A DNA stretch of 35,111 nt, counting the filler, from Candidatus Woesearchaeota archaeon (lineage in GTDB: Archaea > Nanobdellota > Nanobdellia > Woesearchaeales > DATGWN01), in assembly GCA_047603125.1 (NCBI GenBank). It is 2 parts of 2 records of this genome, joined end to end, with 100 filler letters (N's around TTAATTAATTAA, not from the genome) between each part and the next. Parts side by side here need not be neighbours in the genome. Positions count along the whole stretch, not along the records: positions 17,947 to 35,111 come from JBLKOU010000022.1; 1 more part is not named here. One strand, written 5' to 3'. Within the stretch, counting starts at the first letter, position 1. Every line of letters starts with the position of its first letter. Below are positions 17,847 through 32,414 of this stretch, in pieces. The notes below the pieces were generated by a model that was not told the origin of the DNA, made no database searches, and worked only from the letters and a program-made list of their open reading frames with translations. The translations under genes were made by a program, and so were the position numbers.

Positions 17847-17946
17847 NNNNNNNNNNNNNNNNNNNNNNNNNNNNNNNNNNNNNNNNNNNNTTAATTAATT
17901 AANNNNNNNNNNNNNNNNNNNNNNNNNNNNNNNNNNNNNNNNNNNN
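17847..17946. other. Assembly gap / artificial contig linker
   Basis: N runs flanking TTAATTAATTAA, which has stops in all frames. Confidence 0.98.
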
Positions 17947-20330: not shown

Positions 20331-20909
20331 CTATCTATCAACAAACATGTACTCATCAGGCCATGTCTGTTTTACTATTCCATTTTCCATATTTATAGAC
20401 GGCAAATAATTATGATGCACACGAATTCGCTCTGTTATAGGCACCGTCTCTATAGAAACAATGGCATCCTTTCCAAAACACTCGTGAAAATAAGGAACAA
20501 TTCGTCCATTAAATTCATTTACTAATTCGTCCTGACTGAATCCATCAAGCAAAAAAATGATTGCCAGATGCCCATCGCGCTCGCCAACATAAGTCGTTCC
20601 AATGTACTTGGTATTACTCATGCGAATTTTTGCATCTTGTTCAACTGACTGCATATACTGTTGCTTTGTAATCCCAGCACGAAGTTTTATAATATAGAGT
20701 TGATGCGCCTCAAAAACACCCAGACGTCGACGGTCAATTGTGGCAAAATATCGCAAAATTCCCTTCTCTTCCAACTTTTTTCGCTTTCTATTCACCGTCA
20801 TTACTGGTACACCCGTGCACTTTCCAATCGCATTATCAGTTGCACGAGGATTTTTCATTAATTCTTTAATAATAACACGTTCCTGTTCATCAAGCGTATA
20901 AAAATCCAT
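20331..20909 (-). CDS. Lrp/AsnC-like transcriptional regulator with an extended effector domain
   Basis: LDEQERVIIKELMKNPR...TVNRKRKKLEEKGIL HTH. Confidence 0.85.
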   Translation of the reverse strand: MDFYTLDEQERVIIKELMKNPRATDNAIGKCTGVPVMTVNRKRKKLEEKGILRYFATIDRRRLGVFEAHQLYIIKLRAGITKQQYMQSVEQDAKIRMSNTKYIGTTYVGERDGHLAIIFLLDGFSQDELVNEFNGRIVPYFHECFGKDAIVSIETVPITERIRVHHNYLPSINMENGIVKQTWPDEYMFVDR

Positions 20910-21008: not shown

Positions 21009-21428
21009 ATGGATACTAACTTGTATACTAGACTTGTAGAAGCGCACAATCAATATCATACCAATGGATTTCTCCCCGACCAGACCATGCAAGCCATCCC
21101 TGTAAACCTTCCCCGATACAATCTCGTACAAGGAATCTTAATCAAGGAAATACATGAGAAAATAAAAAAAAGCAACCCAACCACCGGCTGGACAATCGAT
21201 AGTGTGTGCAACCGAATATGGATTCCAAGAAAACTCAGCAAAAAGTTTGCAACAGACTACCGTTTAGCACTCCCCATCATAGAAGAAGTCCCACAACATT
21301 GGTTAAGTGCCCCCTATATACACTCACTTTTCTCTCTTACTCGTGCGCAGAAAAGACCTGAACCTGTTGACCATACTCAAGTGCTTGCACAAGCTTGTGT
21401 CCAACCTCGCTATCAGTTCGGATCTTAA
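21009..21428 (+). CDS. Hypothetical protein; 3' end overlaps the ATPase gene antisense
   Basis: GAGGT SD before ATG 21009; TATA-like TATATAAAAG upstream. Confidence 0.55.
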   Translation: MDTNLYTRLVEAHNQYHTNGFLPDQTMQAIPVNLPRYNLVQGILIKEIHEKIKKSNPTTGWTIDSVCNRIWIPRKLSKKFATDYRLALPIIEEVPQHWLSAPYIHSLFSLTRAQKRPEPVDHTQVLAQACVQPRYQFGS

Positions 21429-22686
21429 GACTGGCAGATTTACTTGCTTTACAACGAAACAAAAGCTCATGCTCAATATAAATTTCAACAGCGCATTGCG
21501 CATACTTTTTGTTCAGTTCCATAGTAATTGATTGCGGATTCTTTTTCACATCAAAAGACAATGCGTTTTGAGTTGATTCTTGCTTGCATAAAAACCGAAC
21601 AGGTAATTTGTGCGTGTCAATGAGTTTTTTGAGGTCTTGATCCTTTGCCAAAGTTGCAATTTGATCCTCACTAACCAGAACCTGTAGCACATCTTTTACT
21701 TTCTCTATACGTACCTGTACTTGCTTTTTTTTAAAATACTGCTCGAGAATCGTCTGTGCATCTTCTTTAACAGGCATGAGAACCAGCTGATCCCCAAAGG
21801 TATACAGCTCATATAAGAGTGTTTGCTCGACTAAATCACGAACTTCAATAACGGGGCGAGAAATTGATTTATCATGCATTCCTGTTGGGACTTTGACAAC
21901 CATGGATAATGTCAGAATTGTCGCAATCTCCCCCTTATCAACAAATAATATCGTATCAATAATATGGGGTAAAAGCCCGATTTCAGTTTTTCCAACAAAA
22001 CGATGCAACGCATCAACAGCATTTGTCGCATGAACAACACCAATCATTCCCGTTCCACTTAAACGAAGGTCACTAAAGAGCGTAAAATCCTCAGTATTTC
22101 TCATCTCATCGAAAAACACATAATCCGGTCGACTCAATAGCACTATATCTTTGAGTTGTTGTACCGTGCTAAAGGCCTTTGCATATTGCGTTATTGAGAG
22201 GGGCAAAATCATATCACGCGGATTTTCAATGGTTTTTATAATCGTATTTTGTTTATGATAATGCAAGGCGAGGGCTTGGCTCAATGTCGACTTTCCTGCA
22301 CCAGGAGAGCCTCCAATTAAAATTCCACGGGACTTTTGAGAAAGTATCGTTTGAAGCTTGAAAGGAACCGCATACTCTGACAATTCTCGCTGATACTTAT
22401 GGCAAACGATTGTCACTTCATGACGTGATACTAATGGGGGGCTGACAATAACTATACGGTATGCTTGTAGTTCAACAATTTGCGCGCAGTCATTTTGTGC
22501 ATACACTGTTGCTTTCTCATTTGCTAATATACTCTCAATTATCTGTGTAATTTTCTCAACAGAAAGTGGCTCTTGCGTTATTTGAACAAGCTGTATATTT
22601 CCCGGTGTCCCTTTTTTGGCAAAAACGCGTTCATTTGCGTACAGATGCACACTTAAGACTCCCTCCTGAAAATATTGTTCAAACAT
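21337..22686 (-). CDS. PINA-family (PilT/VirB11-like) ATPase lacking the N-terminal PIN domain
   Basis: SVHL...AKKGTPG, GSPGAGKST, TIENPRD, LLSRPDYVFFDEMR, GVVHAT, VKVPTGM...RPVIEV. Confidence 0.88.
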   Translation of the reverse strand: MFEQYFQEGVLSVHLYANERVFAKKGTPGNIQLVQITQEPLSVEKITQIIESILANEKATVYAQNDCAQIVELQAYRIVIVSPPLVSRHEVTIVCHKYQRELSEYAVPFKLQTILSQKSRGILIGGSPGAGKSTLSQALALHYHKQNTIIKTIENPRDMILPLSITQYAKAFSTVQQLKDIVLLSRPDYVFFDEMRNTEDFTLFSDLRLSGTGMIGVVHATNAVDALHRFVGKTEIGLLPHIIDTILFVDKGEIATILTLSMVVKVPTGMHDKSISRPVIEVRDLVEQTLLYELYTFGDQLVLMPVKEDAQTILEQYFKKKQVQVRIEKVKDVLQVLVSEDQIATLAKDQDLKKLIDTHKLPVRFLCKQESTQNALSFDVKKNPQSITMELNKKYAQCAVEIYIEHELLFRCKASKSASLKIRTDSEVGHKLVQALEYGQQVQVFSAHE

Positions 22687-22737: not shown

Positions 22738-23013
22738 ATGGCTAAAATCCCACCCGTCATATTTATTGGTTTAGGAGGTATTGTTTTAACGATTTCTCTT
22801 TTTAATCGCGAGCTCATCCTCTTTGTTCTTGCAGGATTTGCGTTTCTGGTATATGGATTTATTGGGTTTGTAAGTGAAAAAAAACCAAAACAGCGCAGAG
22901 TTCACCACCCCCATGCGCATCAACAACCACTACAAAAACGCTGCCACCACTGTGGTCATGTCATCAATGCCAGATATCGGTTCTGCCCGCATTGCGGTGC
23001 TAAGAACGCATGA
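22738..23013 (+). CDS. Small 2-TM protein with C-terminal zinc ribbon
   Basis: Two hydrophobic helices; CHHCG...FCPHCG. Confidence 0.85.
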   Translation: MAKIPPVIFIGLGGIVLTISLFNRELILFVLAGFAFLVYGFIGFVSEKKPKQRRVHHPHAHQQPLQKRCHHCGHVINARYRFCPHCGAKNA

Positions 23014-23647
23014 CTTTTTGATAAATATCTTGACAATCTTCAAAATAATGCGCACTTGCTAAGTGAAATACAACCGCAATTTTTGAAGTTTGCACCTGTT
23101 TTTGTACATATTGGCCAAGAACATAGGCTTGATACATATTTGCCGGAAGACCAATTAAAATATCACTGCTTCGAAGAAAAAAACAAACAACTAGCGTATC
23201 ATCCCGGATTTTAAAATCAATGGAAACTATTGCAGGAATGTCAAGCTCCATGGACGGCTGCGTCGTTTCCTTCTTGCCTAAAATAAGCGAAGCAACAGCC
23301 TGTCGAGTATTTGGGTCTTTTTGTAAGAGAGGAATAATCTTTTGATCAATTTGATTAAACCCCTCATAATCAAATAAACGATGACCATAACTATAAGCAG
23401 TTCTGGCATTAATACTTGGAAATAAAATTGCTTGACGAATTTGCTCAGGACTTGGATACATCCATTTTTCTACATGGGAGAGCACGGTAATCGGGCGAGT
23501 GATATCTTCAAAATCCAAAAGCTCAAAGCTCACATGTAAAGATTCTATACAAACGCGATTCTTTCTATCTTTGTAGATGCGCGCATGTTTATTGCAATAA
23601 TCAAGTACAGCCCTCCACGTTTGAAATGTATTTAATCCTCTAATCAT
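23000..23647 (-). CDS. Archaeal thymidylate synthase-like protein lacking the catalytic Cys
   Basis: YSYGHRL, NQID, DPNTRQA, RSSD, PAN and SAH motifs; PC is replaced by PA. Confidence 0.85.
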   Translation of the reverse strand: MIRGLNTFQTWRAVLDYCNKHARIYKDRKNRVCIESLHVSFELLDFEDITRPITVLSHVEKWMYPSPEQIRQAILFPSINARTAYSYGHRLFDYEGFNQIDQKIIPLLQKDPNTRQAVASLILGKKETTQPSMELDIPAIVSIDFKIRDDTLVVCFFLRSSDILIGLPANMYQAYVLGQYVQKQVQTSKIAVVFHLASAHYFEDCQDIYQKVMRS

Positions 23648-25124
23648 CTTCTAAAAACTCCGATAAAGCTCTCTCTTTTGTTTGTAATGAAAATGAATAA
23701 CAGAAAAAAGGAAATGCAAAGCTGTTTAATACTAATGAACATTCTCCAAATGCTTGCGAGCTGGAAAGAACACCTTCACGCTTAATTCGAACTTCAAATC
23801 CTCCTTCAAATGCCTGAACAATCAATTCTTTTTGGTGCAATTGTTTTTGAAGAGATGACTCTAAAAGTTGCTTGCCTGCTTGAATTTGTAAATACGTATA
23901 TGGTTGTAATAATGATGATTGTTTTGCTGCAAGTCGATACGCCTGAGAAATATGAAGTTTATAGCGCAATAATAACCCGCACGCATTATAGATGACCTCT
24001 TGTTGTTTTGCAAGATGACGGACAGTTTGTGTGCACTCTTGAAGCAGTGTTGCCATTTGCTCAAAGGTATAATCTGATGGAATGTAAAAATGATGTAATA
24101 AACGAATACGAACATCACTGAGCACATACATATTCGGATCTGAAAAATGTGCACCTTGGCGAGTCAGAGAATCAAATAAAACATAGGAACATTCGTGAAA
24201 CACCGATTCTAAATCACGTGCATGGGTTTTTTCTTGAAAAAACTTTGCTAAATCAACTAAGAGCGTTTTTTGGCAAATAACTGCACAAAGCGGTCTTGGC
24301 TGCTGTATATAAGACTTCCATTCTTGCGGATCGATAGTATATGGACCTGCACGACCAACAAAGTAAGGTGCTTGATGCACATCATCATTTTTTATATTAA
24401 ATTTGAGCCCATGTTGTGCAAACTCACTTGCAATCAACGAAAAAAAAGATTTATGCAATACAAACTCACGAGCCGTTACATCAAAGACCAGCGTTATCAA
24501 AGGAGTCGCATATTTAACATACAAGCGGATAAATTGCAACACTTTTTTTTCATCTAAAATATTTGTCGCATCAATAATAATCGACGCACTAATATGATGT
24601 TTTGCAAGTACATCAATAAGGCGCTGGTAAAATAGAGTTACTGTATCATCTTTTTCCAAGAGAGTCTCAAAATCATTAAGTCCAAGTACATCATTACAAA
24701 ATCGCGCGTAATGACAGAGTGAGTCAAGTGCTTGATCAAAGGAATCGAATTGCATACAATCTAATAATAATGCGTTGTAGAGCTGCCATCGTTTGGATTC
24801 AAATTCACTAATATATGTTGACTGAAAGTCTTGTCTTGTTGGTGTTTGCTCTATAAGTTCGTACACATGCTGCCCCTTTGTTACTCGCTTGACAACCTGC
24901 ACACAATGTTCGTGATCAAGCTTTTGCAAATAGTATAAGAGTTTTCTATGCAACTTTGCAAGCTCTTGTTTTGCTTGTTTTTTCTTTTGAGAACTCACCT
25001 GAGAATCCACGAGAATTTGCTCATACATGGGTGCTTCCTCAAAAATATGCAGGACAAGCTGACTTGTAGTTGCTTGCTTATGTTCACGAAGATAATCCTG
25101 AATCTGAGCTCGTAAATTCACCAT
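23640..25124 (-). CDS. wHTH fused to a degenerate class III RNR (NrdD)-like domain (probable start MVNLR)
   Basis: N-terminal wHTH pattern; NrdD-like motifs in order (NDFETLL, PYF, VDLAK, AYRLA, GG, PFF); no glycyl-radical motif. Confidence 0.6.
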   Translation of the reverse strand: MVNLRAQIQDYLREHKQATTSQLVLHIFEEAPMYEQILVDSQVSSQKKKQAKQELAKLHRKLLYYLQKLDHEHCVQVVKRVTKGQHVYELIEQTPTRQDFQSTYISEFESKRWQLYNALLLDCMQFDSFDQALDSLCHYARFCNDVLGLNDFETLLEKDDTVTLFYQRLIDVLAKHHISASIIIDATNILDEKKVLQFIRLYVKYATPLITLVFDVTAREFVLHKSFFSLIASEFAQHGLKFNIKNDDVHQAPYFVGRAGPYTIDPQEWKSYIQQPRPLCAVICQKTLLVDLAKFFQEKTHARDLESVFHECSYVLFDSLTRQGAHFSDPNMYVLSDVRIRLLHHFYIPSDYTFEQMATLLQECTQTVRHLAKQQEVIYNACGLLLRYKLHISQAYRLAAKQSSLLQPYTYLQIQAGKQLLESSLQKQLHQKELIVQAFEGGFEVRIKREGVLSSSQAFGECSLVLNSFAFPFFCYSFSLQTKERALSEFLEDD

Positions 25125-25142
25125 TTTAGAATGGTAATAAAC

Positions 25143-25160
25143 AAACATTTATAAATGTTT
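25143..25160. promoter_or_regulatory. Perfect 18-bp palindrome centred on a TATA-like TTTATAAA in the divergent promoter
   Basis: AAACATTTATAAATGTTT. Confidence 0.6.
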
Positions 25161-25232
25161 CAGAAAATTTTTGAAATTAAAAAAATTTATTCCAAAACAG
25201 CCTTGTTGTATTTGAAACTACACCCGTATATC

Positions 25233-25700
25233 ATGGACACAAAGGAATTACAAATCCTCAGTCAGTTTCGAAAGAACGCCCGAGAAAACCTTACCACCGC
25301 ATCACGCAATATTCGCGTGCCCATTAGCACTATTCATGAGCGTTTAAAAAAATACGAAGGTTCTGTCATCTTCAGACACACAACACTCATTGATTTTAGT
25401 AAAATAGGCTTTAGTCTACGTCTCCAACTCATGCTCAAAATAGCCTCCAAAGACAGAGAACGCGTCGGAATGTTTTTGCGCGCACATCCCCGTGTAAACA
25501 CAGTAAGCATCATTTCAAATGGTTTTGATTATATGGCCGAAGTCATACTCAAAAACATGCAAGAAGTAAAGCTTTTTCTCAAACAGCTCGAACAATTTTC
25601 CATAACAGAACGCCATGAATTTTTTATTATTGACGATATGAAAAAAGAAGCGTTTTTATCAGACCCCTGTATTTGTGAGCTGACATTTAAGGATATTTAG
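25233..25700 (+). CDS. Lrp/AsnC family transcriptional regulator
   Basis: MDTKELQILSQFRKNAR...STIHERLK, IDFSKIGF, NGFDYMAEV. Confidence 0.92.
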   Translation: MDTKELQILSQFRKNARENLTTASRNIRVPISTIHERLKKYEGSVIFRHTTLIDFSKIGFSLRLQLMLKIASKDRERVGMFLRAHPRVNTVSIISNGFDYMAEVILKNMQEVKLFLKQLEQFSITERHEFFIIDDMKKEAFLSDPCICELTFKDI

Positions 25701-26511: not shown

Positions 26512-27162
26512 TTACTTTTTGAAAGTAACAATCTGCAACGCGTTATAGCATACACTCACAAAAAACACCGCGAGTATTTGCCAGAAAAAAACAGTAATAC
26601 TTAATGACCACAAAAAAAGAAGCGAAATTAATAATAGCCACGGGTATCGAACCTTTTTTTTAAATAGAAATGCTTTCCAGTAGGTATTTATAGCCATATA
26701 CGCCGTCCACAATAACACTGCAAGAATAAACAGCGCATACTGGGCTGCATCCCCGGAAATCATTAGCGGAGACAAGAATAAGAGAGATACAAAAAAACCA
26801 ATAAAGAGCCCATATTGGACAAGAAGATACCAAATATACGGCGGGTTTTGAAATTGTGAGAATTTTATCATATCAACAACAGCATGGAGTGCAAATGCAA
26901 TAAGGCTCATATAAAATAATTGTAAAAAAATAGGAAGTAGTGACAGCGACGGCAAATCACCAATTGGCATCATCGTTTCTGAATCAATTTGAGAGGCATA
27001 CAGCTCCACATTTTGAAAAAAAACAAATAAATATTCTGTAAGTGTCTGATGAAAAAAAAATAGGTAGACAAACACAAAACTACAAATAAACAAAATATCA
27101 AGCCCAACATGCCAAAACAATTTGGCAAGAAAGGGTTTCCCTAATTTTGTGGATTGAGACAT
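26512..27162 (-). CDS. Polytopic membrane protein (about 6 TM)
   Basis: Multiple hydrophobic helices; overlaps the giant gene. Confidence 0.8.
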   Translation of the reverse strand: MSQSTKLGKPFLAKLFWHVGLDILFICSFVFVYLFFFHQTLTEYLFVFFQNVELYASQIDSETMMPIGDLPSLSLLPIFLQLFYMSLIAFALHAVVDMIKFSQFQNPPYIWYLLVQYGLFIGFFVSLLFLSPLMISGDAAQYALFILAVLLWTAYMAINTYWKAFLFKKKVRYPWLLLISLLFLWSLSITVFFWQILAVFFVSVCYNALQIVTFKK

Positions 27163-30100
27163 TTTTCATCGGCGTTCGGTTGACAAGTCTGGCCTGGCGA
27201 ACATTTTTTATAATCAGTTCCTAAAATATCAACACCATCATCTTTTGGCGACACCTGTCCACACACACAATCTGTTGCTACCGGACCTGTGCGACAAAGC
27301 TGCTTTGTTTCTTGCTCATTCAAGCAGACATATCGCGCGCCAACATCTGCAACTGAGCGCATGACACTCTCTCCACAAATGTAGAGAGGAAGCAATGCTC
27401 CACTAACAACTTGATTTTGTTGTGCAGTTACTGTTTGCTCTTCACCAGTCTGCAAATCTACAGGTGGAAGGTCACAGAAAACCGTATATGTTTTTGAGTA
27501 TTTTTGTTCTTCTCCTTGATAAATATAAACTGCAGGACTTGGTTGTGCATCTTGAATAGTGACTTGCCTATTTTGATCTTGCATTTGTGATCGATCATAG
27601 CGAGAATCATGCAAAGATACAGTAACCGTAATCTGATCCGTTTCTCTTCCTGGCGGACAAATACCACTTGCACTAAACAAGCGATCAAATAATAATACAC
27701 TTTGTTGGTCCGCTTCTGGTTCTCTTGTAATTAGAAGATTATTCTGATTTCCTTGTGTTTGTTGTCCACTTGTTCGAGGAACGGGTATGAACCAGCTATC
27801 TGCTGCGGTTTGTTCACCACTAACATGTCGGATTTGGACTTCTGTACATTGATCAAGATCTTCGTTACAATGCGTCAAAATATTCTCAACCCCAAAGTCT
27901 CTTGAACCATCGGATCTTGGTGCTCCCCGAGATGTATACAAGAATGCATGTGTATCATTTTTGATACCAATGCCCAAATATCCTCGAATGTTTAGCCGCA
28001 CATTTTGATTTGGTTCTCCTGAAGCAAAGCCTGCAAGTTGTAAATTCTGACTTCCCGGAACACCTTGCACCTCGGAGAGTCCATACTCACCTACTGATGA
28101 ATCTGCCTGTTGTCCAACACCTAATGTATAGGTTCGTGGGCCATCCGGCCAGATTGCAGGAATTTGACCAAGTAAACCTCGTGGAGTAAAGCTATCATGT
28201 AAAATAGTATTATCATGGGTAATTCTCACCCGTGCAAATTTTGGTAATTGATTTTGCGCAGGAACGCCCTCGAAATTTTGCTCTGCAAATATCGCAAACT
28301 GTAAACGATCACCAACTCGAACAGACTCTGCTGCGCCACTTGCAAGTTCAAATGATCGGCCTTGTTGGAAAAATACATCACCAAATTGATTTAATGAACC
28401 AAATGTACATTGGAATCGTAAATTAACCGTTGACCACGAACACTGCGGCGGTATTTCATCCAAACCAATACTTCGAATATAGCGCTCACTCACTTGAGGT
28501 GCACGCGATGAACCTTGAGGAGTCATTGTCAATCTCGCCCGATCAAAACGGACATCTCGAACGACACGTTCATATCTGTCAGCACGAGGATCGCCAAAGC
28601 CAAATGTTTCACCACCACGTAATGTTCCACTATCAAGAGTGAGTGTTTGTTCTTGTCCTGTATGTGCACAATCACAAATACCGCCTTCAAAACCTTCATT
28701 TGGATCACAGTCATACCCTGTTGTACACACGAGTTCTAACCGCCAGTTCAAGTCCGAACCAGCAATGACAAAAAATCCTAAATGGTACATAAAAATTGCA
28801 TCACTACTTTGTGGATCAGGGCCCATGAATCTTCTATCAGCTGGGAAAATAGTTGCTGTAGAATTAATTTGCATTCCTCCACCACGAATCGTCAACGATT
28901 CTTCAAGATCGGGTAACCAATCATACCCAAATGCAGCAAGACAAATACTATGCAAGAATTTTCGACTCGAGATAAGTGCGGTGTATGTTGCAGTATCCCC
29001 ATACCTTCCTGCAAATGATTCAGCCATACCTTGTGTACCTTGACGCAAATTTACAACACTACTCATTATAGAATCACTCCCCCGAGAACCTACTTGACCA
29101 CCCTGTTGTGATTTTGCAGCTGCACGGCCAATACATTTAATTGCATCAATAATTAAATCACATAAATACTGCGTTAAGAATGCCCGACAAGGACCGGATT
29201 GGAATTCTCCTGTAAGTAAGACCGATTTAAAACAGCTGGACACACCTTCAAATAAATTTCGAATAACAAGTAAGTAACCATGAATTGCAGGCAAACAGAC
29301 ACAAAGTAGCGCTGTTGCTAAATTATCCGTCGGATCTATTAAAATTTCTTGCACTTGATGCTGTGCTAATTGATCTGGCGCATCGCGAATCAGTTGACAA
29401 TCTAGTGCCTCCGAACCATCTCCTGAATGGAAAACCCCATATGACTGAACAGTGTCCGTTCCCGGAACATTTTGTCGACAAACACGAGAAAGTTCATTCG
29501 GCTGCATCCTCTCAAAAACTCCATTATTCTCCCTATAATAAAATCCTTCACTATCCCTCGCCCAAACTTCCTCATGTTCAGAATTTGGTGTAAAAGTAGT
29601 AAGTGCTCGTTGATTTTCAATTTTTTGACCCATTATTGGGTCCACACCCGAAACACTACGAATCTCTGAATTTTGTGCATCAAAGCGAACAGGAACTCCA
29701 TCTCTAGATTCAGGTGAAAATATAAGCTCACCTGTAGGAAGCGTTTCCACACAACCACTTCTACTTACCTTATTAGATAACCCAAAACGCCCCTCTCTAG
29801 TAATAGAAACAGGATCGGCACTCAGCTGTTTTGATGCAGGATCAATAATGCGTTTTTGCGGGTCAGCATAATCACCAGTAGCTGTTATTTGACCAAGTTG
29901 ATAGCAATCAACATCATCAGTTATCGGTGTTCTGTAATAATCATTGCCGCCACGTGATATGTAATCATCTCCTCGAGACGTATCCCTATCTGAACAAAAG
30001 CCTGATGTAATCGTATCAAAGAATGCACCAAAACCTTCTCGCTGCGAATCTGGGTTTTGCGCTTCAATGGATTGTTCAACAGGGTCATGTATTAAACATG

Positions 30101-32414
30101 CAGAATCCCATTCTCGATCATATTCAACTTGACATCCATCAGAAAAACCTGCAGCTTCCCAACCACCAACGCTTGTTGTATCAAACCAAGGATTGTCTGA
30201 ATCCCGAGAACAGGCAGAACTATACCGAGATGAAAAATCTCTTGAACTTGTTCGTATATACTCTTGCGCAGATGGGACTGCCGGACAAAAGATACGATCG
30301 CATAAATAATTTCTATACACATCTGATTGTTGTGTCTGAAATGTTGCTTGTGCACAAGCAACCGGATTTCCAGAAAGGGTACCATAAAGTGAAGTTGAAT
30401 CTGCACAAGCCTGTTTAATGAAAGGATTACGTAATAATGCTTTCTCACTTCTACAAATGTTGGCCGCACAACCAGCATCCTGACAACCGCTCACATATTG
30501 CCTAATTGCATTCATCGTCATCGGTTGTGCCATCAATGTTCCACATTGACTTGCCTGTCGTGTATACGAGACAACACCACCAAGTGTGGTTGCCATACAT
30601 GCACCAAATGTAATTAACGATGCTTGCGAAATTGGTTCAATGACTTGGTCAATTAAATCAACACCTTGATCAAGAAGATTTACTGTTGCATTCAATAAAC
30701 TATTTGGATAAAAATCAGGAGGAACACGCCGATCAAAATAAACATCTATATCTAAACATTGACGCTGTGTTGGTTGCGACTCCCAAGTATACGAACCTTC
30801 TTGTCTCACACCTTGTTGTCCTGAACGTGATTGATCTACACGTTTTTGATAATGAATTTCTACGTCCAATGGCAAGGACACGCCTTGCAATTTCTCTAAT
30901 TGTCTATATGTTTCGGTTAAATTTCCAAATCGCGATTCAGATAAACGATTCAGTGTACAAATAACCGTTGTTTGCTCGCTCCACTCATATCCACTTGTGG
31001 GAAACACAGTACAGGAATTTTCATTAATAAAATCAGAAATAGTAAAATCACTCATATCAATATATGATGTTGACTGCAAACCAATGGATGTTCCTGTTAT
31101 TGCAATATTATCAATACTTTCTCGACCTAAATATTCAACATTGAGCGTAAACATAATTTGTGCAACGCCATTAAATAAGTGTTCTGGCTGAATGATTGCA
31201 GGAAACACATCATCAGGATATATGTGAAAGTCACCCGCCGTTTGACATTGATCATAACTAATTGTACGCGTGTATTCATCACTTCTCTGATTTGCTGCAT
31301 CAACCGCAAAAAGCGTCACCTCATTTCTTCCCATCTGCTCTAATCGTGCTTCTGCTTCACTCTCATCTCTTTGCGATGTCAAATCGGGTCGCATCAAAAA
31401 CGACAGTTGTTGACGTTGCAATGTAATTGGAATTGAAAATTCACCCTGCTCATTTGTCGTTGTTGTTTGTTTGTTTTGATCTCTACGACGAATTTCATCT
31501 CGAACATTTGCACATTCAGGATCATCTAAAAATTCCCAAATCGTTTCTGCACTATGTTGCGTGTTATCTGAACATCGGTAACTTACATCAAAGTATCGAT
31601 TATTCGTATACGCTTCAACAATTATTCCTTCTTGAGCAGGTTCAACTTGACCACGCACCGTAAATCGTGGCGTGCTTACCACACGATTCGTTTCGATATT
31701 TGTTGAAGCAATTTGTGGCGGTCTACCTGTAACAAAGACCCATGTTTCATAGTGTGCACTGTTTCCTGCTTGATCCGTTACTGTAAGTGAAAGTGTATTA
31801 TTTCCTTCAACAAAACCAGGCGTAATTGTGTGATTTCCTGGCTGCCAAGTTCCATCTGCGCTATTTTGAGCAGAAGCCGTTTGCGCATTCTCAACAACAT
31901 ACTCATACTCTACTTGCTTATCAACACTAATAGTAAAATTTGTTGGGTGCGTTCCTCCTATAAAGCGAGGTGGTGAGCGAACTGTTAATTGTGGCGGCTG
32001 CGTATCTACAATTATCATATGCCTCACTGTTGACATTGATTGTTGATCGCTTGAAATTAATTCAATATAAATTTCATATTCTCCATCACCATCTGCTAAA
32101 GGAATATCACGCAATCGTAATTGTAAATCAGAAGGTGTATATGTTGAGTGTGCTTGTCCATTCACATATACTTGCGCAAATAAATCATCGGTATCAACAA
32201 CACCAAAAAGAGTTACTCGATTTGTTCGGACATAATCAGGCCACTGATCTTCAATAAGTGTTAATTCATTTGTAAGAGGAATGTTTTGATTGTTTGAATA
32301 TTCAGCAACATTGGCAAATGCCGGAAATACCAGCGTCGTCAGGCTTAAAAATAAGAGTAAGTAGGTTCTTGGTAATCTATACGCATCCGCTCTCTTAAAT
32401 CCATTCATACTCAT
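27141..32414 (-). CDS. Giant secreted/membrane Cys-rich protein with Ig-like N-terminal domains (1757 aa)
   Basis: Signal peptide (VFPAFA), DTQPPQLTV/TDQAGN Ig-like motifs, hydrophobic helices, many Cys (CDRIFCP, CVCLP). Confidence 0.85.
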   Translation of the reverse strand: MSMNGFKRADAYRLPRTYLLLFLSLTTLVFPAFANVAEYSNNQNIPLTNELTLIEDQWPDYVRTNRVTLFGVVDTDDLFAQVYVNGQAHSTYTPSDLQLRLRDIPLADGDGEYEIYIELISSDQQSMSTVRHMIIVDTQPPQLTVRSPPRFIGGTHPTNFTISVDKQVEYEYVVENAQTASAQNSADGTWQPGNHTITPGFVEGNNTLSLTVTDQAGNSAHYETWVFVTGRPPQIASTNIETNRVVSTPRFTVRGQVEPAQEGIIVEAYTNNRYFDVSYRCSDNTQHSAETIWEFLDDPECANVRDEIRRRDQNKQTTTTNEQGEFSIPITLQRQQLSFLMRPDLTSQRDESEAEARLEQMGRNEVTLFAVDAANQRSDEYTRTISYDQCQTAGDFHIYPDDVFPAIIQPEHLFNGVAQIMFTLNVEYLGRESIDNIAITGTSIGLQSTSYIDMSDFTISDFINENSCTVFPTSGYEWSEQTTVICTLNRLSESRFGNLTETYRQLEKLQGVSLPLDVEIHYQKRVDQSRSGQQGVRQEGSYTWESQPTQRQCLDIDVYFDRRVPPDFYPNSLLNATVNLLDQGVDLIDQVIEPISQASLITFGACMATTLGGVVSYTRQASQCGTLMAQPMTMNAIRQYVSGCQDAGCAANICRSEKALLRNPFIKQACADSTSLYGTLSGNPVACAQATFQTQQSDVYRNYLCDRIFCPAVPSAQEYIRTSSRDFSSRYSSACSRDSDNPWFDTTSVGGWEAAGFSDGCQVEYDREWDSACLIHDPVEQSIEAQNPDSQREGFGAFFDTITSGFCSDRDTSRGDDYISRGGNDYYRTPITDDVDCYQLGQITATGDYADPQKRIIDPASKQLSADPVSITREGRFGLSNKVSRSGCVETLPTGELIFSPESRDGVPVRFDAQNSEIRSVSGVDPIMGQKIENQRALTTFTPNSEHEEVWARDSEGFYYRENNGVFERMQPNELSRVCRQNVPGTDTVQSYGVFHSGDGSEALDCQLIRDAPDQLAQHQVQEILIDPTDNLATALLCVCLPAIHGYLLVIRNLFEGVSSCFKSVLLTGEFQSGPCRAFLTQYLCDLIIDAIKCIGRAAAKSQQGGQVGSRGSDSIMSSVVNLRQGTQGMAESFAGRYGDTATYTALISSRKFLHSICLAAFGYDWLPDLEESLTIRGGGMQINSTATIFPADRRFMGPDPQSSDAIFMYHLGFFVIAGSDLNWRLELVCTTGYDCDPNEGFEGGICDCAHTGQEQTLTLDSGTLRGGETFGFGDPRADRYERVVRDVRFDRARLTMTPQGSSRAPQVSERYIRSIGLDEIPPQCSWSTVNLRFQCTFGSLNQFGDVFFQQGRSFELASGAAESVRVGDRLQFAIFAEQNFEGVPAQNQLPKFARVRITHDNTILHDSFTPRGLLGQIPAIWPDGPRTYTLGVGQQADSSVGEYGLSEVQGVPGSQNLQLAGFASGEPNQNVRLNIRGYLGIGIKNDTHAFLYTSRGAPRSDGSRDFGVENILTHCNEDLDQCTEVQIRHVSGEQTAADSWFIPVPRTSGQQTQGNQNNLLITREPEADQQSVLLFDRLFSASGICPPGRETDQITVTVSLHDSRYDRSQMQDQNRQVTIQDAQPSPAVYIYQGEEQKYSKTYTVFCDLPPVDLQTGEEQTVTAQQNQVVSGALLPLYICGESVMRSVADVGARYVCLNEQETKQLCRTGPVATDCVCGQVSPKDDGVDILGTDYKKCSPGQTCQPNADEKCLNPQN

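Follow-up and report, generated by a model that had tools for sequence, protein, structure and literature searches.

A conserved pair of proteins with ribonucleotide reductase-like and thymidylate synthase-like folds, encoded opposite a dedicated Lrp gene in a DPANN order, is a candidate nucleotide-sensing complex

What function can be served by two adjacent genes whose products appear to keep the folds of two central enzymes of deoxynucleoside triphosphate (dNTP) supply while lacking the residues of their catalysis? The question is raised by a locus in a 35,111-nt stretch of DNA (the window) from a Candidatus Woesearchaeota archaeon (assembly GCA_047603125.1), for which a first inspection, here called the sequence-only reading, had proposed a nucleotide-sensing module of a dead NrdD-like and a dead ThyA-like protein opposite an Lrp regulator. 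The open reading frame (ORF) listing of the window places a large ORF (23640–25148, 502 aa) and a small ORF (23000–23647, 215 aa) on the minus strand, and an Lrp/AsnC ORF (25155–25700, plus strand) divergent to both. The large gene's stop codon and the small gene's ATG are interleaved in an 8-nt overlap (23640–23647, minus strand; junction GATGATTAG), which is replaced by a 4-nt overlap in other loci (for example, L009, L030, and L048–L052). This layout, together with a PF01037 match in the divergent gene, confirms the gene arrangement as first described. Alignment with homologues indicates M9 (25124) as the likely start of the large gene, giving a protein of 494 aa (23640–25124), and M27 (25233) as the likely start of the Lrp gene (25233–25700). 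With these starts the true intergenic stretch is therefore 108 bp (25125–25232), in agreement with the interval first delimited. The present analysis establishes a new, order-restricted protein family in which a ribonucleotide reductase (RNR)-derived barrel with a winged helix-turn-helix (wHTH) and a thymidylate synthase (TS)-derived subunit come under joint control with a dedicated Lrp, and tentatively favors the view that the pair forms a nucleotide-sensing, DNA-binding complex.

The large protein belongs to no Pfam or NCBIfam family, and its relatives carry the public name 'hypothetical protein'. Its AlphaFold2 (AF2) model, built from a 12-sequence alignment, has a mean predicted local distance difference test (pLDDT) score of 84.3 and consists of two parts. 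Residues ~9–100 (24849–25124, minus strand) form a wHTH that VIA-align matched with Zalpha, MarR, ArsR, and IclR domains (Z 8–9, root-mean-square deviation (rmsd) 1.4–2.6 over ~60 residues), and whose long third helix carries the conserved residues H67 and R68. Residues ~101–490 (23679–24848, minus strand) form a ten-stranded alpha/beta barrel of the type found in RNRs and pyruvate formate-lyase (PFL). In an exhaustive structural search, the best VIA match of the barrel was Prevotella copri NrdD (8p23_A; Z 22.8, rmsd 3.8, 356 aligned residues), followed by Streptococcus thermophilus NrdD (9d3x; Z 22.5) and the class I/II RNRs (Z 18.6–22.1); RNRs of all classes scored higher than SP0239 (Z 17.0) and the glycyl radical enzymes (GREs; Z 11.7–16.3). 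All 28 RNR, GRE, or PFL-like (SP0239) entries (Z 11.7–22.8) outranked every other fold, and Foldseek agreed on the barrel (4col_A, E 4.2e-8). The ESM Atlas was uninformative, with a low-confidence model of this protein (pLDDT 0.42) and no row above TM 0.31. At the sequence level, the large-protein profile found no RNR among PDB sequences at E ≤ 10 (its best matches were Fic, E 0.12, and EAL, E ~2.3 at profile positions 208–272), Pfam gave no match to PF13597 (NRDD) or PF02867 (Ribonuc_red_lgC) at E ≤ 1, and hhalign against the genome's own RNR returned a probability of 0.3%. The EAL lead, which had drawn attention together with GGDEF genes neighboring the pair in four loci, was dropped because no EAL domain occurred among the 50 best VIA rows. 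Judged by its predicted structure, the large protein belongs to the RNR/glycyl radical enzyme barrel superfamily at fold level.

The features on which radical chemistry depends in such barrels are missing. The candidate finger loop, a hairpin at residues 255–271 (24336–24386, minus strand) formed by strands E262–264/E269–271 between the fifth and sixth barrel strands of the AF2 model, reads G-R-A-G-P-Y and carries no Cys at its tip (G265-R266-A267-G268). It is strongly conserved among 45 orthologues (G265 in 44, G268 in 45, and Y270 in 44; R266 column R 25, K 11). None of these orthologues share a strictly conserved Cys with the rest of the family, whether in residues 255–271 or elsewhere; the sole conserved Cys is C390 (C 42, A 2, S 1). 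Likewise, ~15 residues follow the final barrel strand, and this stretch contains no conserved Gly that could represent a glycyl-radical tail. From its sequence, then, the protein is not a working RNR. Polar residues on the strands and finger loop that line the barrel interior are conserved (D153 and R349 in 45/45, N254 and D299 in 41/45, and Y270 as above).

The small protein (215 aa; 23000–23647, minus strand) is recognizable as a ThyA relative, with a PF00303 match of 36.9 bits (cut-off 24.3). It reached no NCBIfam thymidylate synthase equivalog cut-off: the closest model was TIGR03283 (methanogen-type short ThyA; 82.2 bits versus a cut-off of 174.55), and the other models were far below theirs. 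The AF2 model, based on 31 orthologues (pLDDT 89.8), was matched by Foldseek with the CMP hydroxymethylase MilA (5jnh; E 3.4e-14, TMq 0.80), and matches to MilA, thymidylate synthases, and T4 dCMP hydroxymethylase lay between E 1e-12 and 3e-14. Because a sequence search with this protein alone yielded only one weak relative, its orthologues were collected from the module loci. In the window, the position of the ThyA catalytic Cys is occupied by Ala139 (codon 23231–23233, minus strand; 'PAI' versus 'PCH' in a phmmer alignment to T4 TS, 1tis), and the corresponding column among 43 orthologues holds G 24, S 10, A 6, and C 3, so that 40 of the 43 lack the Cys. The His that follows is replaced by Leu or Ile, and the position of Escherichia coli Y209 is mostly Phe. 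The pocket residues R159 (43/43), R115 (42/43), and S160, D162, N170, Y87, and H200 (40/43 each) are conserved; we take them to be the equivalents of E. coli TS R166, R126', S167, D169, N177, Y94, and H207, respectively. The alignment thus indicates that the phosphate- and uracil-binding residues for dUMP are retained. Moreover, the family has a specific KWxYP insertion (residues 61–65; 23453–23467, minus strand), which makes the protein four residues longer at this point than the order's Cys-bearing fusion ThyAs and is itself well conserved (W62 39/43, Y64 42/43, P65 43/43). Those relatives, in which an MtrA-like part, ThyA, and PterinBD are fused, keep the Cys in 'PPC' or 'QPC' and are without the insertion. 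By sequence comparison, the small protein is a derived paralogue that has lost the nucleophile and kept the nucleotide pocket. These observations bear out the earlier view of the two proteins as a wHTH joined to an RNR/PFL barrel without catalytic residues and a ThyA fold without its nucleophile.

The fusions represent a third type of thymidylate synthase in this order. Examples with an MtrA-ThyA-PterinBD-DUF4346 arrangement were found at L038:1340-2818, L041:1735-3150, and L042:1821-3800, the second of which adjoins a thymidylate kinase gene, and many similar MtrA-ThyA-PterinBD-type open frames of 440–670 aa occur in the sampled genomes. PF14251 occurs both within fusions and on its own, in 132 of the 301 genomes overall.

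Modeling of the two proteins together, a check that the sequence-only reading had proposed, returned a passing prediction, with an interface score (ipSAE) of 0.67 (runs 0.66, 0.67, and 0.69) versus 0.00 for the best control; 116 of 157 solved complexes reach this mark, as do 2 of 215 mismatched pairs. The runs shared at least 65% of their contacts, with partner pLDDT of at least 85. On the large protein, the predicted interface comprises helix 318–329 and a conserved loop, QExIYxSCGMPxRF (residues 382–395; 23964–24005, minus strand), in which G391 is present in 45/45 and P393 in 44/45 orthologues (the window has L), and all lowest-error contacts involve residues 386–392. On the ThyA-like protein, it comprises residues 61–74 (with the KWxYP insertion), 83–87, 136–140 (the site of the lost Cys), and 162–170. 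C390 faces ThyA-like residues 138–140, 162–170, and Y87, at the mouth of the former active site. Interface residues are more conserved than the remainder (0.649 versus 0.462, permutation p 0.0007; 0.703 versus 0.537, p 0.0014). The insertion region and residues 162–170 presumably correspond to the folate side of the cleft in TS structures, and on that basis the partner loop would replace the cofactor above the nucleotide pocket. According to this model, the two proteins are probably bound to each other as a heteromer, and the former folate cleft appears to have been turned into a protein–protein interface.

The pair is a fixed genetic unit. In a scan of species-representative genomes, the large gene was directly followed by the ThyA-like gene in all 33 loci, and the same order was found in 12 of 12 further, more divergent whole-genome loci, giving 45/45 in all. 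The Lrp gene lies divergently upstream in 30/33 and 9/12 of these (39/45); it is 3 kb away in L022 and absent from L007, L028, and L032. The synteny claimed earlier for the pair plus Lrp therefore holds well beyond the window. The window Lrp protein matches PF01037 with 26.7 bits (cut-off 25), its helix-turn-helix (HTH) models remain under their cut-offs (HTH_24, 17.9 bits; HTH_AsnC, 17.6 bits), and from its layout of HTH plus RAM/AsnC_trans_reg it is classified in the Lrp/AsnC family. No neighbor beyond the three genes is conserved across the loci: ArgRS (9 loci), L15e (5), and GGDEF (4) recur only among related lineages. Two or three Lrp paralogues surround the pair in 11 of the 33 scan loci (L005, L006, L008, L010, L011, L015, L019, L023, L025, L027, and L030), located in tandem on the upstream side or immediately 3' of the ThyA-like gene. 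A GGDEF (diguanylate cyclase) gene, unusual for archaea, lies directly 3' of the ThyA-like gene at L005:5396-6055, L010:7335-7904, L012:4025-4627, and L019:7302-7913.

The 33 scan loci are labeled Woesearchaeota or Nanoarchaeota, or carry obviously loose labels. A sample of 301 genomes from the order contained the large protein in 73 cases, and a phylum-wide sample of 301 genomes in 53, of which 52 belong to the same order; outside this DPANN order the family is thus nearly absent. A profile search of 1.84 billion representatives retrieved 237 large-protein clusters, 169 of them at E ≤ 1e-30; among the 150 clusters listed, all full-length ones are ~460–550 aa and match the whole profile, the shorter entries being fragments. 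The ratio of nonsynonymous to synonymous substitution rates (dN/dS), calculated from pairs with dS < 1 drawn from a few related lineages, is 0.069–0.124 for the large protein, 0.035–0.184 for the ThyA-like protein, and 0.027–0.171 for Lrp, and the module ORFs are intact in the loci examined. Neither the family libraries nor the listings and abstracts returned by full-text literature searches contained a name or description of an RNR-like/ThyA-like pair, in line with the initial impression that no such system had been described. The sequence-only interpretation is thus partly supported: every structural claim was borne out, and on the four points that it had named as decisive against it, a barrel match was found for the large protein, orthologues mostly lack the catalytic Cys, the pair is syntenic elsewhere, and dN/dS is ~0.1 rather than near 1.

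The divergent promoter/operator region (25125–25232) contains a TATA-like element, TTTATAAA (25148–25155), beside which lies a GTTTCAG box (25157–25163; CTGAAAC on the minus strand). A perfect 18-bp palindrome (25143–25160) holds TTTATAAA and overlaps this box, and a second TGAAAC (25213–25218) is located just before the Lrp start. Among 37 usable Lrp-to-large-gene intergenic regions, taken from match to match, CTGAAACA (CTGAACA-type boxes) occurs in 29 versus 2.1 expected, and TGAAAC/GTTTCA in 33 versus 6.3 expected. The usual layout is a CTGAA-N3-TTCAG palindrome plus yCTGAAnCA half-boxes a few bases upstream of the TATA element facing the large gene; the L012-type region carries the palindrome CTGAATGTTTCAG. 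In the window, the TATA box lies ~25–30 nt from the M9 codon, a distance that suggests a leaderless transcript for the large gene. CTGAAACA is not a general promoter element, as only 4 of its 62 copies in the window's own genome are intergenic versus 8.3 expected by length, i.e., without enrichment. Archaeal Lrp-like proteins are reported to recognize 13-bp sites with two 5-bp half-sites around a 3-bp center (PMC2715240). The CTGAA-N3-TTCAG form matches this recognition mode, and the motif is therefore assigned provisionally to Lrp; the dedicated Lrp probably binds the palindrome and the CTGAAAC half-boxes by the TATA element. Nevertheless, the TATA-proximal box persists in four of six loci without an adjacent Lrp, which leaves the wHTH protein as a candidate reader. 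A search for a wider regulon in the window's own genome found CTGAAAC sites outside ORFs leading only to GrpE and a 132-aa unnamed ORF. The palindrome is present at the module in three of five relatives' genomes, and of the 14 sites off the module in these five, nine lie within called ORFs and only the L071 site among the rest is in AT-rich, promoter-like DNA. Such a local operator is no less consistent with control of the pair by Lrp than with a wide-acting regulatory role of the pair itself.

The genome also shows what the pair is not needed for. Elsewhere it encodes a genuine RNR large subunit (663 bits) and, on another contig, a true NrdD (443 bits), and it also has genes for thymidine kinase and thymidylate kinase; neither ribonucleotide reduction nor thymidine salvage therefore requires the pair. 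No ThyX was found in the genome, and no PF00303 match besides the module's own ThyA-like protein. From this gene content, salvage can supply dTMP. The true NrdD gene (G000:C35:19110-21719; L035/L036) is of interest in itself, since its Pfam match is divided into two pieces (model positions 1–158 and 156–562) that lie ~900 nt apart in one 1039-aa open frame, which suggests an intein or large insertion. Across the 301 genomes sampled from the order, ThyX or canonical ThyA (best E ≤ 1e-50) is present in 50 of 73 module-bearing versus 184 of 228 module-free genomes. Both are absent from 23/73 module-bearing versus 44/228 other genomes, a difference that a statistical test overstates because the genomes are related. 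These tallies include depositor-restricted genomes (the module-bearer G112, and G132, G208, G210, G245, G274, G121, and G183 in the TS counts), whereas the sequence analyses were confined to the others. At least 5 of the 23 module genomes without ThyX or ThyA carry the Cys-bearing MtrA-ThyA-PterinBD fusion. A role of the module as a replacement for thymidylate synthase was rejected, as the two distributions show no phyletic complementarity. In this order, ThyX often consists of two tandem Thy1 domains in single frames of ~450–600 aa (e.g., G296:C1:247298-248575 and G009:C9:17544-18819), which suggests a duplicated or fused ThyX.

How can these properties be combined? We tentatively favor a nucleotide-sensing, DNA-binding pseudoenzyme complex under the control of a dedicated Lrp, because a wHTH is present, the nucleotide pocket is intact, the position of the former nucleophile tolerates G, S, A, or C, and the cofactor cleft appears to have become an interface. 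The RNR-type barrel with its winged helix and the short, archaeal-type ThyA both descend from central dNTP-supply enzymes, and neither can perform its ancestral chemistry. They most likely form a stable heteromer, with the S-C-G-M-P loop inserted in the old folate cleft above the nucleotide pocket. Such a complex could bind a pyrimidine nucleotide resembling dUMP or dTMP, perhaps with a second nucleotide in the polar barrel interior, and nucleotide binding could be coupled to DNA binding through the winged helix, so that the pair would act as a pseudoenzyme-based sensor. The divergent Lrp would set the expression of the pair, probably via the conserved palindrome and half-boxes. A more specific version, which is speculative and on balance unlikely, regards the pyrimidine nucleotide as a molecular glue: held in the dUMP pocket and capped by the S-C-G-M-P loop, it would promote a (wHTH-barrel)2-(ThyA-like)2 assembly, and hence DNA binding would report the dUMP/dTMP (perhaps dNTP) pool. 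If true, this would be the first archaeal dNTP-pool-sensing transcription factor, built wholly from recycled RNR and TS cores, and a sensor in symbionts that live partly on salvaged nucleotides.

Several observations weigh against a sensor. The evidence for the complex is model confidence obtained from custom unpaired alignments, and the hairpin identified as the site of the RNR radical Cys was placed by model topology. Three ThyA-like proteins (L051, L052, and L054, from G046, G161, and G095) retain Pro-Cys and may be ancestral-state or reverted members. No relative of the window copy, which lies on a long branch, exceeds ~35% identity, so that the dN/dS values do not extend to its own lineage, and the copy departs at near-invariant positions of both the large protein (P393L, K94H, and N352H) and the ThyA-like protein (R116Q and P124G). 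The only conserved operator that was found sits at the module itself, and no wHTH regulon was found in the searches described above. Conserved polar residues inside the barrel are as compatible with catalysis as with ligand binding. Finally, by analogy, a dedicated divergent Lrp usually controls a metabolic operon, which would favor an enzyme. The pair could accordingly be a neofunctionalized enzyme or a BirA-like 'trigger' enzyme that performs new chemistry, involving neither radicals nor a Cys, with a pyrimidine nucleotide as substrate or a DNA base reached via the wHTH, while Lrp senses the substrate or product and switches the operon. This explanation, which we judge unlikely but the most serious of the rivals, accommodates the combination of a divergent Lrp with a local operator (the classic metabolic-operon layout under Lrp), the conserved polar residues of the barrel interior and finger loop, a ThyA-like nucleotide pocket that is intact save for the nucleophile, strong purifying selection, and a predicted interface that forms a composite pocket above the nucleotide site. 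However, the characterized proteins matched by the ThyA fold, namely TS and the dCMP/CMP hydroxymethylases, are all known to use the Cys that is missing here, and no substitute nucleophile is conserved, since the column is G/S/A and the partner's C390 is A or S in 3/45. Furthermore, the pair has no linked gene for a cofactor-binding domain, activase, or reductant, and an ordinary metabolic enzyme would not normally be expected to carry a wHTH.

Alternatively, the pair could act at the protein level, by sequestering a nucleotide or by docking on genuine RNR, TS, or the replication machinery, with the wHTH serving for localization or protein contact. Dead RNR large-subunit homologues with new protein-binding roles exist in herpesviruses, and BORF2 is among the fold matches of the barrel (Z 17.6); ThyA is an obligate dimer with shared sites, and R115, the counterpart of E. 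coli R126', is kept in 42/43; and the lack of a detectable regulon for the wHTH protein would be explained. We nevertheless consider such a modulator improbable, given that ThyA and ThyX, as potential targets of modulation, are both missing from the window's own genome, the loci examined show no linkage to nrd genes, and the module co-occurs with any TS type or with none. Less probable still is a sensor of nucleotide changes caused by viruses, as the sequence-only reading had also entertained, or a pair of decaying nrd/thyA relics, notwithstanding that nucleotide-sensing defense systems exist and that catalytic residues have been lost from both proteins. PADLOC defense models matched neither protein (0 families at E ≤ 0.01), no relatives were found in viral contigs, and the neighbors are housekeeping genes (ArgRS, L15e, and SerRS), so the suggested link to viruses receives no support, while decay is refuted by a gene order fixed across 45 loci, dN/dS of ~0.1, and intact ORFs. 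The least credible possibility is a split-site thymidylate synthase, in which C390 of the barrel would supply the nucleophile in trans and replace ThyA/ThyX. It would account for the position of C390 at the active-site mouth in the complex model, for the genome's lack of ThyX or any other PF00303 match, and for the somewhat more frequent absence of both ThyA and ThyX from module-bearing genomes. Yet the barrels without C390 (L004, L049, and L056) are paired with Cys-less ThyA-like proteins and the three Cys-bearing ThyA-like proteins with C390-bearing barrels, and donation of C390 in trans was rejected as the main explanation for want of any such compensatory pattern. Most module genomes have ThyX or canonical ThyA, with the fusion in at least five of the others, thymidine kinase allows salvage in the window's own genome, and the loop on the folate side, taking the model together with TS structures, would leave no room for a one-carbon donor.

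Outside the module, the window offers several further features. The assembly comprises 1.12 Mb in 70 contigs, with a completeness figure of 100. The window joins contigs C69 and C70 at 17847–17946 (N runs around a 'ttaattaattaa' linker); the module lies wholly inside the second contig, and no feature is readable across the join. The second Lrp-like gene reported ~2 kb from the module does exist (20331–20909, minus strand), with an HTH match (HTH_24, 33.6 bits). Its identification as Lrp did not stand: its only matches are to HTH models, and Pfam detected no RAM domain. It does not recur beside the pair in other loci, which places it outside the conserved unit. The C-terminal half of its product has no family match, and weak PADLOC matches (E 4e-6) are to the HTH part of Csa3/CARF models. 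A gene at 21337–22686 (minus strand) encodes a PINA/PRK13764-type ATPase (443 bits) whose match begins at model position 142, the N-terminal PIN region seemingly being missing. A 1757-aa Cys-rich ORF with an N-terminal hydrophobic segment (27141–32414, minus strand) probably encodes a giant secreted or surface protein.

The module has consequences for annotation as well as for regulation. Its ThyA-like protein passes the Pfam threshold for TS and is the sole such match in the genome, so that automatic reconstructions would credit these DPANN archaea with de novo dTMP synthesis that they probably lack. For the sensing and control of dNTP pools in archaea, a conserved and strongly selected pseudoenzyme pair with a wHTH and a dedicated Lrp offers a concrete, testable candidate, and the reuse of an RNR barrel without radical chemistry has seldom been observed. 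Among bacteria, the regulator of dNTP genes is NrdR, which uses an ATP-cone.

Comparison with known systems shows in what respects the module is new. With NrdD and other RNR catalytic subunits it shares the ten-stranded alpha/beta barrel and central hairpin; unlike them, its barrel has no detectable sequence similarity to RNRs, no strictly conserved Cys, glycyl-radical domain, ATP-cone, or Zn site, carries an N-terminal wHTH within 494 aa, and coexists with a real NrdD and RNR elsewhere in the genome. The dead RNR large subunits of herpesviruses (M45/UL45 type; BORF2, 7rw6, as a fold match at Z 17.6) are similar in keeping an RNR barrel for a binding role, but they are viral proteins of animal hosts, are recognizable as RNRs by sequence, and have neither wHTH, ThyA-like partner, nor Lrp. 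SP0239/UPF0210 (PDB 2ha9), a small radical-free PFL-like barrel of unknown function, belongs to the same superfamily (Z 17.0), yet it scores under the RNRs, lacks a wHTH, and has another gene context. ThyA, MilA, T4 dCMP hydroxymethylase, and TIGR03283 proteins have in common with the module's ThyA-like protein the fold and the phosphate- and uracil-binding residues; in contrast to these enzymes, it lacks the Cys in 40/43 orthologues, contains the KWxYP insertion, and has a gene that invariably follows that of the barrel protein. In coupling a nucleotide-binding module of enzymatic origin to DNA binding, the proposed mechanism resembles wHTH regulators with an active or inactivated enzyme domain as sensor, such as PurR and PyrR of Bacillus subtilis and BirA, which have other folds, whereas the sensor proposed here would consist of two proteins derived from RNR and TS. 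As in archaeal Lrp/AsnC systems, including the 13-bp palindromes with a 3-bp center reported in PMC2715240, the module's Lrp combines an HTH with a RAM domain and is divergent from its target; the half-site CTGAA and the target operon, unlike those of known archaeal Lrp proteins, are new.

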